From contig OZ024742.1 of NCBI GenBank assembly GCA_964016885.1, positions 325,748,001-325,812,000 on the forward strand: a DNA stretch of 64,000 bases. The letters are read 5' to 3'. Source of the stretch: Eledone cirrhosa. Taxonomy: Eukaryota. Of this stretch, positions 16,197 to 20,600 are shown piece by piece; position 1 is the stretch's first letter; every line of letters begins with the position of its first letter. The position numbers and the translations under genes are program-made. The notes beneath the pieces were generated by a model. The model searched no databases, was not told the DNA's origin, and saw only the letters and a program-made list of their open reading frames with translations.

Positions 16197-16407
16197 TTCT
16201 ACTCCAAAAATTTGTTGAGTGCTTTATATCAGTTATAAAAAATATTTGCTTGTTGTATCCCAACAAATTAAATATAACTTATATATATATATATATATAT
16301 ATATATATATATATATATATATATATATATATATACATTATGAAGAGAGAAGAAACATTTAGATATAATTAGTAATAAAATGTATCATACCTAAACTGCT
16401 CCTAAAT

Positions 16408-16497
16408 TCCTCGACTACGTAGTTTCGTGGCATAAACAAAAACAATATATCATGAAGATATAGAGTCCTTGCGAGGTCTGCCGACTTATCAAGAGGA
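16408..16497 (-). ncRNA. Type I hammerhead ribozyme motif, U3-A8 core variant, extended stem II (unit 1)
   Basis: Minus strand: tcctc-TTGATAA-gt(c)ggca-[46 nt]-tgccac-GAAAC-TACGTA-GTC|gagga; predicted cut between + positions 16413 and 16412. Confidence 0.75.
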
Positions 16498-17004
16498 TAC
16501 CTCATTTTACTAGTCTCAAGAACGCGTCTACACGACGTGAGAAAGAATCCCAAAAGGCGGAGGGGGAGATAGTCACGCGATATAACGGTCGAGAAACAGA
16601 GCTAAGCCTCTTATAACCCCGAAGAAAATACCACGGAGGCGGAGGGGGTATTTATATCGAGGCCGTAGAAGAGGTGGTGAAGAAGGCAAGAAGTATGAGT
16701 AATGGAAGCCTTCCAGCTGTCCCCACACCTCAAAGATTGCTCGACCAGAGGGAGTTATTAACAATATAATTAGAAACACACAGATACATGCGGACACACA
16801 CACATATATACATGAATGCATCCGCACCCAACTGTGAGTTAAGGGTGCCAACTTCACCGATGTTGCTCAATGAATGACTGGGACAGACCAATTCAGTTGA
16901 AGTAGACTGAACCAGTATCAGAGTTAAAAATACATTATGAAGAGAGAAGAAACATTTAGATATAATTAGTAATAAAATGTATCATACCTAAACTGCTCCT
17001 AAAT

Positions 17005-17094
17005 TCCTCGACTACGTAGTTTCGTGGCATAAACAAAAACAATATATCATGAAGATATAGAGTCCTTGCGAGGTCTGCCGACTTATCAAGAGGA
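17005..17094 (-). ncRNA. Hammerhead motif, unit 2
   Basis: Same as unit 1 at +597. Confidence 0.75.
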
Positions 17095-17601
17095 TACCTC
17101 ATTTTACTAGTCTCAAGTACGCGTCTACACGACGTGAGAAAGAATCCCAAAAGGCGGAGGGGGTGATAGTCACGCGATATAACGGTCGAGAAACAGAGCT
17201 AAGCCTCTTATAACCCCGAAGAAAATACCACGGAGGCGGAGGGGGTATTTATATCGAGGCCGTAGAAGAGGTGGTGAAGAAGGCAAGAAGTATGAGTAAT
17301 GGAAGCCTTCCAGCTGTCCCCACACCTCAAAGATTGCTCGACCAGAGGGAGTTATTAACAATATAATTAGAAACACACAGATACATGCGGACACACACAC
17401 ATATATACATGAATGCATCCGCACCCAACTGCGAGTTAAGGGTGCCAACTTCACCGATGTTGCTCAATGAATGACTGGGACAGACCAATTCAGTTGAACT
17501 AGACTGAACCAGTATCAGAGTTAAAAATACATTATGAAGAGAGAAGAAACATTTAGATATAATTAGTAATAAAATGTATCATACCTAAACTGCTCCTAAA
17601 T

Positions 17602-17691
17602 TCCTCGACTACGTAGTTTCGTGGCATAAACAAAAACAATATATCATGAAGATATAGAGTCCTTGCGAGGTCTGCCGACTTATCAAGAGGA
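17602..17691 (-). ncRNA. Hammerhead motif, unit 3
   Basis: Same as unit 1 at +1194. Confidence 0.75.
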
Positions 17692-20600
17692 TACCTCATT
17701 TTACTAGTCTCAAGTACGCGTCTACACGACGTGAGAAAGAATCCCAAAAGGCGGAGGGGGAGATAGTCACGCGATATAACGGTCGAGAAACAGAGCTAAG
17801 CCTCTTATAACCCCGAAGAAAATACCACGGAGGCGGAGGGGGTATTTATATCGAGGCCGTAGAAGAGGTGGTGAAGAAGGCAAGAAGTATGAGTAATGGA
17901 AGCCTTCCAGCTGTCCCCACACCTCAAAGATTGCTCGACCAGAGGGAGTTATTAACAATATAATTAGAAACACACAGATACATGCGGACACACACACATA
18001 TATACATGAATGCATCCGCACCCAACTGCGAGTTAAGGGTGCCAACTTCACCGATGTTGCTCAATGAATGACTGGGACAGACCAATTCAGTTGAACTAGA
18101 CTGAACCAGTATCAGAGTTAAAAATACATTATGAAGAGAGAAGAAACATTTAGATATAATTAGTAATAAAATGTATCATACCTAAACTGCTCCTAAATTC
18201 CTACATTTTATTACTAATTATATCTAAATGTTTCTTTTCTCTTCATAATGTATTTTTAACTCTGATACTGGTTCAGTCTAGTTCAACTGAATTGGTCTGT
18301 CCCAGTCATTCATTGAGCAACATCGGTGAAGTTGGCACCCTTAACTCACAGTTGGGTGCGGATGCATTCATGTATATATGTGTGTGTGTCCGCATGTATC
18401 TGTGTGTTTCTCATTATATATATATATATATATATATATATATATATATATATATATATATATATATATATATATATATATATATATATATATATATATA
18501 TATATATATGTATATATATATATGGGCTTCTATATAGTTTTCGTGCACCACGTTTCCGTCACAAAATATTGAGCAAAGCAAAGCTATAGTCGAGGGCACT
18601 TGACGAATGTGGTAAATGGTTGCAAATCGAACTGGTTGCGCCCGTACATAAAAGAAAATTAATCATTAGTGCTAAATACGAAAAGGCGCCTGCTGGATAA
18701 GAAATGAAATCGAAGTGAAGCATAACATACTCCATGCAGTAAACCAAGTATTGCATTTAATAGAAGTAATATGTTTATTGACGTGGAAATGTAATTATCT
18801 ACATGACGTAAATAGAAGGTTAATGAGAAAACCCCTGCGATTCACATTTACCAACACCAGTCATTTAAATAAAATTTGAGCCAAACTGTTCATGTAGATA
18901 ATGTTTCGAATAACTAAGAACGATGTTTTAATTAATCACTAAGAATGGTGTTTTAATTAATTAAAATGACTTGAATTATTTTTACTTTTTACTGTAGGTT
19001 ATATCTCTGTGTGGCTTAATAGAGTATTTGGCTAACAATAGTAAGGTTGTGAGATCCATTCTCTGCAGCACATTCTATTCTTGGTTAAGTCATTTAATTT
19101 CACGTTATACATTTAGAGGCGAAACATTGAAATCACCTATAATTTAATGGATAAACTTATTACACGCTGTGTCATCTGAGACTTCCTGATAATTATGTTG
19201 AGTTTGCTCATGGCTGTGGGATGCTTATTCACTTGCGCGTAAATTTCACAATTGCATTGTTCTGTTTTTCTAACAACTGGAATACTCCCCCTCGGATACA
19301 CTACACACACAGAACCCGTCTCACTTTATTTGGTTGTTTAACTATATCTAATAAAATACATAGTTGTTATATCCGGAATTGTATATCTCTATTCAACTTC
19401 AGGCGTAAGAATAGCATCAACATTTGTTGAATCATTCAGCAAGTTACTTATTAACTGTATACAATCTATCAATAATTCATATTTTGTTCCGTTTCAGATG
19501 ATATCATTATTGATTACTCATCGCAAGTAGTTGTTAAAGTAAAATGGAACATATACTTATCGTCTCTTTTAGTGAGTATTCATCAGTGCGCCATTTACAC
19601 AAGCTTTCAGATACACACACACATACATGTACACACACACACACACGCACACACACACTCGCACACACACACACATATATATGTACATGCATACATATAT
19701 ACATCATACATATACTTGTACACAGATATAAACACACAAACCCCTACATATGCATTCACGTATTTGTCGACGCATATATATATATATACATACATACACA
19801 CACACATATATATATATATATATATATATATATATATATATATGTGTGTTTATATATATATATATATATATATATATATAAGTAACAATATTATAACGAG
19901 AGCAAAAATATTTAAGACACAGAAAACATTGCTTTCATCTTTATACGCTCTCTGTTGGTTGCATAAGGACACAGTTGTTAAGCATACGTCTGCACTGGGC
20001 CTATACCAGCAACAGTAGCTTTGAGCTGACTAACGAATGTTCAAAACTAGAAATGAATATACAAAGTAATAGCAATCATCAATATAAGGCTTCCGTAAAG
20101 AAAACCAAATTTGCCAAAAAGACGAACCAATGTGTTTGGAATATGTAAAACAAAGACAAAGATCTTGCAACAGTAACTACAAAGCAATAAATATGAAAAT
20201 AAACAAAAAATAAAAAGCAAATATAAAGTAAAGGGTGGGCCGAAAGTCAGTTCGGTTTCTCTCGTGACTAAATGTAAAGTAGTATAAGTAGCTAACTACA
20301 GCCTGTCTCATAAGTATTTTCACTCGTTAGATACTTGACACTTCAACACACCCGATCCCAACTTCTGATGAGACAGGCTTTACTTTTTCCCCTTTGGATC
20401 ATCTCCAAAATGGTGAACCAGAACGGACATTATCAACAGCTCATGCGGCGCAAACCTTCAGGAGATTTTCACTGTGAATGAAGAGGATTCTGTTACCGAT
20501 CGTGTGTGGTTTCCAAGATTTCGATTGGAGAATTTCTATTCAAGATAATCCTCGGTCTAGCTGGCAAATTGTATTTGAAAGAAGAGAAAGGAAGGGATAA

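Follow-up and report, generated by a model that had tools for sequence, protein, structure and literature searches.

A hammerhead-bearing repeat array in Eledone cirrhosa as a probable non-autonomous retrozyme inserted in the manner of Penelope-like elements

Results

Layout of the array

The window analyzed here, a 64,000-nucleotide stretch of the genome of Eledone cirrhosa (assembly GCA_964016885.1, contig OZ024742.1, forward-strand positions 325,748,001 to 325,812,000), contains three tandem 597-bp units (16334-16930, 16931-17527 and 17528-18124) that differ from one another at 1-4 positions, followed by a partial fourth unit and by a 218-nt inverted copy at 18202-18419, with (TA)n bordering the insertion on both sides. 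Unit positions (q1-q597) are numbered on the plus strand of the unit at 16931-17527; the hammerhead motif is on the minus strand, so that the RNA reads from high q to low q. The features are listed below.

16280..16335, no strand: left (TA)n target
16334..16930, minus strand: unit 1, its first base being q1, start site S1
16931..17527, minus strand: unit 2
17528..18124, minus strand: unit 3
18125..18202, minus strand: partial unit (q1-78), stopping one base before the predicted cut
18202..18419, plus strand: second, inverted arm (q51 to q1, then q597 to q431), start site S2 at 18419
18253-18419: 167-bp tail between both start sites
18415..18523, no strand: right (TA)n target
16408..16497, minus strand: hammerhead motif 1, predicted cut between 16413 and 16412
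17005..17094, minus strand: hammerhead motif 2
17602..17691, minus strand: hammerhead motif 3
16342..16412, minus strand: predicted hairpin H1 (q79-q9), sequestering the 3' strand of stem I
16774..16839, minus strand: predicted hairpin H2 (q506-q441)

S1, where the RNA of the long arm has its 3' end, lies 79 nt downstream of the predicted cut. The near-identical units with a partial unit inside (TA)n, and the stop of the fourth unit at 18202, equivalent to q78, had been noted in a preliminary description of this DNA, and both were confirmed. A coding unit was rejected: 597 is a multiple of three, yet all six frames of the circularized unit carry stops, and no ORF was found within the unit or between units. 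The units are joined head to tail, on which basis there is no arrangement of LTR, PBS and PPT. A target-site duplication is not discernible in insertions whose both ends lie in (TA)n.

A dispersed family with two fixed start sites

Searching the 3.0-Gb genome with a 20-nt anchor yielded 2185 matches, from which about 1,100 insertions are estimated (47 insertions per 94 anchors). Two samples were mapped, the first comprising 40 insertions around the best-scoring matches (39 of the 1423 candidates having been scored) and the second, free of length bias, 47 insertions taken from the initial 100 matches of the anchor on C1. (TA)n was present at the primed end in 84 of these 87 insertions, and in all 87 the units followed one another head to tail without an intervening ORF. 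Arms start at S1 (q1-6) or S2 (q420-432), two sites 167 nt apart, and their opposite ends are variable. Among 54 inverted insertions, 48 had one S1 and one S2 start, one had S1 twice, and five had an odd end. More than one unit was spanned by 34 of 76 arms, and a pure exponential distribution of arm lengths was rejected (p = 0.012). The array thus belongs to a non-coding, multi-copy repeat family as one of its insertions, with arms that start from two fixed sites in (TA)n.

The preliminary description had the sequence folding back into an inverted copy of about 218 bp. The inverted copy stands, being 99% complementary; a simple fold-back was rejected because the inverted arm ends at the fixed site S2 in (TA)n, and the inverted part is thus a second primed arm. 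L1-type twin priming was also rejected, given that the start of the second arm differs from the end point of the first. An assembly artefact as the origin of the array or of its inversion is very improbable: the array and its unit count are known from assembly sequence alone, yet the same architecture recurs with different junctions at dozens of loci, and the units carry distinct variants.

The stem III pattern with different flanks had 226 matches, 30 of which were examined; most of these are colinear with the unit, about 75% identical to it, and have the same two end sites and the same unit size. The family is long-lived and of a known kind.

Two side observations concern array size. At L252 (G000:C7:38438500-38446700), a 588-bp subfamily forms 6 and 4 full units in opposed arms, and these units differ at 0-3 positions; arrays of the family reach up to 10 full units. 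L254 and L258, on different contigs, have in common the end q334 and the variant q291A and differ in unit number and second arm; they may be a duplicate or reflect a fixed template end.

The hammerhead motif and its predicted structure

A minus-strand type I hammerhead pattern was found by pattern scan in all three full units (cores at 16492, 17089 and 17686), in agreement with the preliminary description. The motif consists of a 5-bp stem I, an extended stem II and a palindromic stem III, with the predicted cut after GUC, between q80 and q79. In its core, UUGAUAA, U3:A8 replaces C3:G8, and the spacing from core to GAAA is 58 nt (a long stem II region). The same scan of the 64-kb window gave one other match, which is non-palindromic. 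Rfam, at both thresholds, found no hammerhead in the array; its miRNA matches were put down to the inverted repeat and microsatellites. As described in passages of PMC4209133, a U3-A8 core is known from Schistosoma Penelope-like elements (PLEs), and motifs with a palindromic stem III are thought to act as dimers.

In folding predictions, the 14-mer of stem III forms no structure by itself; it does self-pair, at -14.3 kcal/mol. The isolated hammerhead region folds with stems I and II, and the hammerhead-constrained fold costs 1.1 kcal/mol. For the folded circular monomer the predicted probability of stem I is 0: hairpin H1 (0.7) and a local hairpin (0.88) take up its strands. S1 sits at the 3' foot of predicted H1 and S2 at the 3' foot of predicted H2, an arrangement that is predicted in most of six folded relatives and not in the autonomous element described below.

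Across 28 older relatives (about 75% identical), core identity was 269/272, versus 5304/7113 for q165-420; the core lay outside the pattern used to search for relatives, and two younger relatives were excluded, leaving 28 of 30. The S1 and S2 regions were 89% and 84% identical, respectively. In the proposed hammerhead structure 91% of cells pair, and covariation does not exceed that of shuffles (89/500). The putative hammerhead core is conserved across older relatives. For predicted retrozymes of Xenopus, 8 of 9 gave no cleavage.

Insertion ends at the predicted cut

The preliminary description proposed that the template RNA had its 5' end made by ribozyme cleavage and called for the 5' breakpoints of other copies to be tabulated relative to the cut. 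The first of two exit patterns, which pick up copies where they run out of the unit, gave 28 matches, with ends at q75 (4), q76 (2), q77 (1), q78 (11) and q79 (9) and one deletion (scored by eye); after duplicates were collapsed, q78 retained 10 and q79 6. The second gave 31 matches, of which 11 ended at q79 (8 after collapsing) and 19 at q80-92, including lumps of 4-5 ends at q84, q85 and q92, with one deletion. The q79 peak is pronounced (8 versus 19 over q80-92, that is, 8 versus 1.5 per position; p = 1.4e-4), and ends fall abruptly past q79. The excess of ends at the cut site is about 30, or approximately 1-2% of 2185 passes, an estimate that takes about half of them as captured.

In the unbiased sample, 0 of 76 ends fell at q75-79; a tally of 8 of 65 from the best-identity sample was rejected as overstating the effect. 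Other end zones gave 192 matches (q497-509) and 106 matches (q294-307), as raw counts from different anchors with at least 100 matches listed for each, and per position both zones, 13-14 nt wide, equal or exceed the cut site. The strongest tested end zone, q497-509, is located at the 5' end of predicted H2, just as predicted H1 has its 5' end at q79. The cut site is therefore a sharp peak of ends, yet it is not the main stop, and such ends are rare. What survives of the proposal is the local peak at q78-79; a ribozyme-made 5' end would characterize a minor class, and most breakpoints lie elsewhere. For the array in the window, cleavage probably caused the end.

A TATAAAT box is present on the minus strand at 16650-16656 of the window (q317-323), about 20-25 nt upstream of the q294-307 zone; it could mark a transcription start, or the zone could be structural.

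Penelope-like elements and the candidate enzyme

The genome contains 10,597 GIY-YIG candidates, and long reverse transcriptase (RT)-endonuclease frames are present among its sequences. One autonomous RT plus GIY-YIG family has a 938-aa open frame and a period of 4979 bp; its members are listed below.

L168:1773-6931
L169
L173
L175
L176
L179

By sequence, the linker of this family is CX4CXXC, which passages of PMC8557442 give for the Neptune and Nematis clades. The family has a short U3:A8 hammerhead with a palindromic stem III; its (TA)n ends lie 82 and 150 nt past its cut, S1 of the 597-bp unit lying 79 nt past its own, and one of each end was found in 3 of 3 inverted pairs. According to passages of PMC11167929, both strands of the DNA are cut and extended by a PLE protein, which initiates at two internal sites, explaining the tail, and inserts in vitro with hammerhead cleavage dispensable.

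The two-site, one-per-arm starts, shared with this autonomous family, support the earlier proposal of a non-autonomous family served in trans by a Penelope RT. Mobilization of the Penelope type through RNA is almost certain, and the partner is plausibly, on balance, of the Neptune type. No DNA homology to the unit was detected in 50 of at least 150 listed GIY-YIG loci, so that the partner is singled out by insertion style only. The search for linkage to a PLE ORF, suggested in the preliminary description, returned that lack of homology and a single join: at L250:4419-7637 (G000:C1 near 70.687 Mb), a family arm meets the middle of the ORF of an L178-type PLE at q506 in the same RNA sense, one case of either a template switch or a target deletion. 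Nothing in the genome matched a motif taken from a loose contig end, and among the results listed for 30 older-relative loci none had a PLE ORF joined to the unit.

Might the unit be the pseudo-LTR of an as yet unfound autonomous PLE, with the arrays as by-products? The end rules and the hammerhead variant match those of the autonomous family, L250 joins a PLE ORF, and the examined set covers 50 of the GIY-YIG loci, of which at least 150 are listed, and, among older relatives, 30 of 226. We nevertheless consider this improbable: in the 87 mapped insertions unit follows unit directly and no ORF intervenes, relatives about 75% identical have the entire unit, colinear and of the same size, and no repeated non-unit continuation past S2 appeared in 49 matches of a low-capture pattern.

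Additional hammerhead families, whose cores are the canonical CUGAUGA, were observed at L173:533, L184:6962, L174:6986 and L178:2042/2638; most of them have (TA)n a short way downstream.

Origin of the multimers

Variants were surveyed at 98 loci after four complex stretches were dropped and low-complexity positions masked. In 74 loci with overlapping segments in one arm, 21 rare variants (17 loci) were present arm-wide, 6 were partial (2 loci: this window and L033), and 107 were singletons. Of the rare variants at the 55 loci whose arms overlap, 18 (14 loci) were common to both arms and 62 were not. Subfamily markers were discordant within a locus in 7 of 769 tests (L041, L044, L069 and L141). 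One parent-daughter pair was found in 112 stretches: L162 has q386T only in unit 1 and a deletion at q38 only in unit 2, and L255, on another chromosome, has both variants in all three of its near-identical units and lacks the q314C of unit 2. Variants on either side of a unit boundary in L162 being joined in L255, the source monomer crosses the boundary and starts between q39 and q313, a range that includes the cut site, and the phase fits a cut-to-cut monomer.

The earlier proposal that the multimers were made at reverse transcription is supported by the L162/L255 pair and by the rare variants that run through whole arms at 17 of 74 loci. Reiteration of a single unit is likely their main source, and most of the weight that we give to it goes to a circle over jumps between cut linear monomers of one source, although both leave the same traces here and are not told apart.

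Penelope-type priming could instead act on a linear read-through transcript of an existing array, which the ribozyme cuts occasionally, with no circle. An end at the cut site requires a linear 5' end and so counts for a linear template, as do the heterogeneous units in the window (q188T and q502C are common to units 2 and 3, missing from unit 1 and confined on this haplotype to those two units) and at L033, L141 and L044, and the occurrence of q255A in a single unit per arm at L252, which has 10 units; passages of PMC11167929 have uncut RNA as the main in vitro substrate. The array-wide variants and the L162/L255 pair argue against this explanation, as does the expectation that arrays would lose length with every round of serial 5' truncation, yet arms longer than one unit (34 of 76) occur in many subfamilies. 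We regard it as unlikely for the family as a whole; linear-template copying is probably a minority route.

Less likely still is that short insertions acquired tandem units later, by unequal crossover and gene conversion, along lines set out in passages of 10.64898/2026.07.22.740005. The q188T shared by units 2 and 3, found nowhere else on the haplotype among 4 pattern matches, would fit such amplification, as would the three-unit block repeat (a period-3 pattern) of L033. Weighing on the other side are the multi-unit state of both arms of inverted insertions, with rare variants in common at 14 of 55 loci, the identical units of the young array L255, and the frequency of arms longer than one unit (34/76). 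Units 2-3 in the window and the period 3 of L033 also count against a monomer circle, which gives no such pattern, and q255A at L252 counts against a pure circle model. The four loci with discordant markers, the 107 singletons and the 62 variants not common to both arms weigh against single-unit copying as well. A mixture is likely, mostly of single-unit reiteration with some linear multimers or later duplication.

On the hammerhead strand, variants shared among loci are skewed to A>G (13 versus 6 U>C; p = 0.007, uncorrected), and private variants are not (13 A>G versus 28 U>C). The shared variants also include many G>A changes (11). At 8 of the 9 most common A>G sites, the base in older relatives is A. 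This pattern suggests A-to-I editing of an RNA intermediate.

Discussion

Comparison with known elements

By its sequence features the family is classifiable among the non-LTR retrozymes, being known here from genomic sequence alone. As in metazoan non-LTR retrozymes (passages of PMC7229834 and 10.64898/2026.07.22.740005), non-coding tandem units with one type I hammerhead each are dispersed and co-occur with PLEs. The 597-bp unit differs in its U3:A8 core and 58-nt stem II region, and its ribozyme is predicted to be blocked in the circle, whereas the ribozyme is predicted to be free in most animal circles (PMC7229834). The earlier impression that the unit is longer than animal retrozymes holds against the approximately 170-400 nt given for invertebrates in passages of PMC7229834 and does not hold against the 51-972 bp range in those of 10.64898/2026.07.22.740005.

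The family works like the insertion of an EN+ PLE and is not an autonomous PLE: internal starts, a tail at one end, an inverted truncated second arm and a microsatellite target are all present. EN+ Neptune-type PLEs, as portrayed in passages of PMC8557442 and PMC4209133, share the (TA)n target, the inverted 5'-truncated second copy, the one-end tail and a hammerhead with palindromic stem III; they differ in a tail of 30-40 bp, compared with 167 bp here, and in having an ORF, and the 50 PLE loci examined have no DNA homology to the family. Poseidon-Ac (passages of PMC11167929) likewise has two internal starts downstream of the hammerhead, an AT-rich target and extension of both strands. Those passages give no strand difference in start site for Poseidon-Ac and an AC-rich stem-loop at its sites, in contrast to the different sites on the two arms in 48 of 49 insertions with both ends canonical, and to the U-rich sites with TA microhomology, in the present family. 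Elements of Chlamys such as MRC1 (passages of PMC8557442) are also non-autonomous PLE derivatives with multicopy head-to-tail insertions, but their 3' ends are like that of the autonomous partner, and canonical hammerheads are lacking in most Chlamys.

The origin of animal retrozyme arrays is debated: passages of PMC7229834 propose reverse transcription of circles by an unknown retroelement, and those of 10.64898/2026.07.22.740005 lean on later local amplification. The insertion ends and within-array variants of the 597-bp family are evidence for the copying step that the retrozyme papers propose, and its countable genomic traces separate the two proposals. They are unusually direct traces of a step proposed and unshown in the papers searched; no paper with such traces was found in that literature, where supplements may list cephalopod elements, and the passages of PMC13282606 do not mention ribozymes.

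Proposed mechanism

We propose, with a probability of roughly 60%, that the array is a non-autonomous retrozyme for which a Penelope-like RT-endonuclease primes both target strands and runs repeatedly round one RNA unit, which is probably circular. The minus strand would be transcribed, and the hammerhead would cut, probably co-transcriptionally or as a dimer, freeing a 597-nt monomer that a host ligase would close and that would refold with the ribozyme off. The enzyme would then use S1 to prime one arm and S2 to prime the second, and run for about 650 nt on average, after which the two cDNA ends would be joined. About 1-2% of passes would stop at the cut site, the template there being cut, linear RNA. 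The family also shows that the 5' end of an insertion is seldom set by the ribozyme.

A more specific version is tentative and somewhat doubtful. An enzyme dimer would copy one ribozyme-excised, edited circle onto both (TA)n strands, one subunit per conserved hairpin foot, and the passage from L162 to L255 would represent a full cycle, in which a monomer excised across a unit boundary underwent rolling-circle reverse transcription at a new chromosome. With the start sites pinned to two exact positions and a candidate class of enzyme present in this very genome, rolling-circle retrotransposition becomes testable in vitro.

Other features of the window

A broken Penelope-like ORF lies on the minus strand at 3666-5803, in which a C-terminal GIY-YIG-like segment comes after RT motifs; Pfam returned no match for two scanned pieces of it. 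Two possible short exons with AG/GT borders (by eye) are located on the plus strand at 18999-19040 and 19499-19539; if both are real, the array, in antisense orientation to the gene, may be intronic. A SINE-like repeat at 15611-15790, which we take to resemble an octopus SINE, has 7 further copies in the window. Fragments resembling LINE reverse transcriptases and a Tc1/mariner transposase were recognized by eye from translations at 29572-30624, 38256-39348, 56907-58102, 61423-62742 and 23009-23566.
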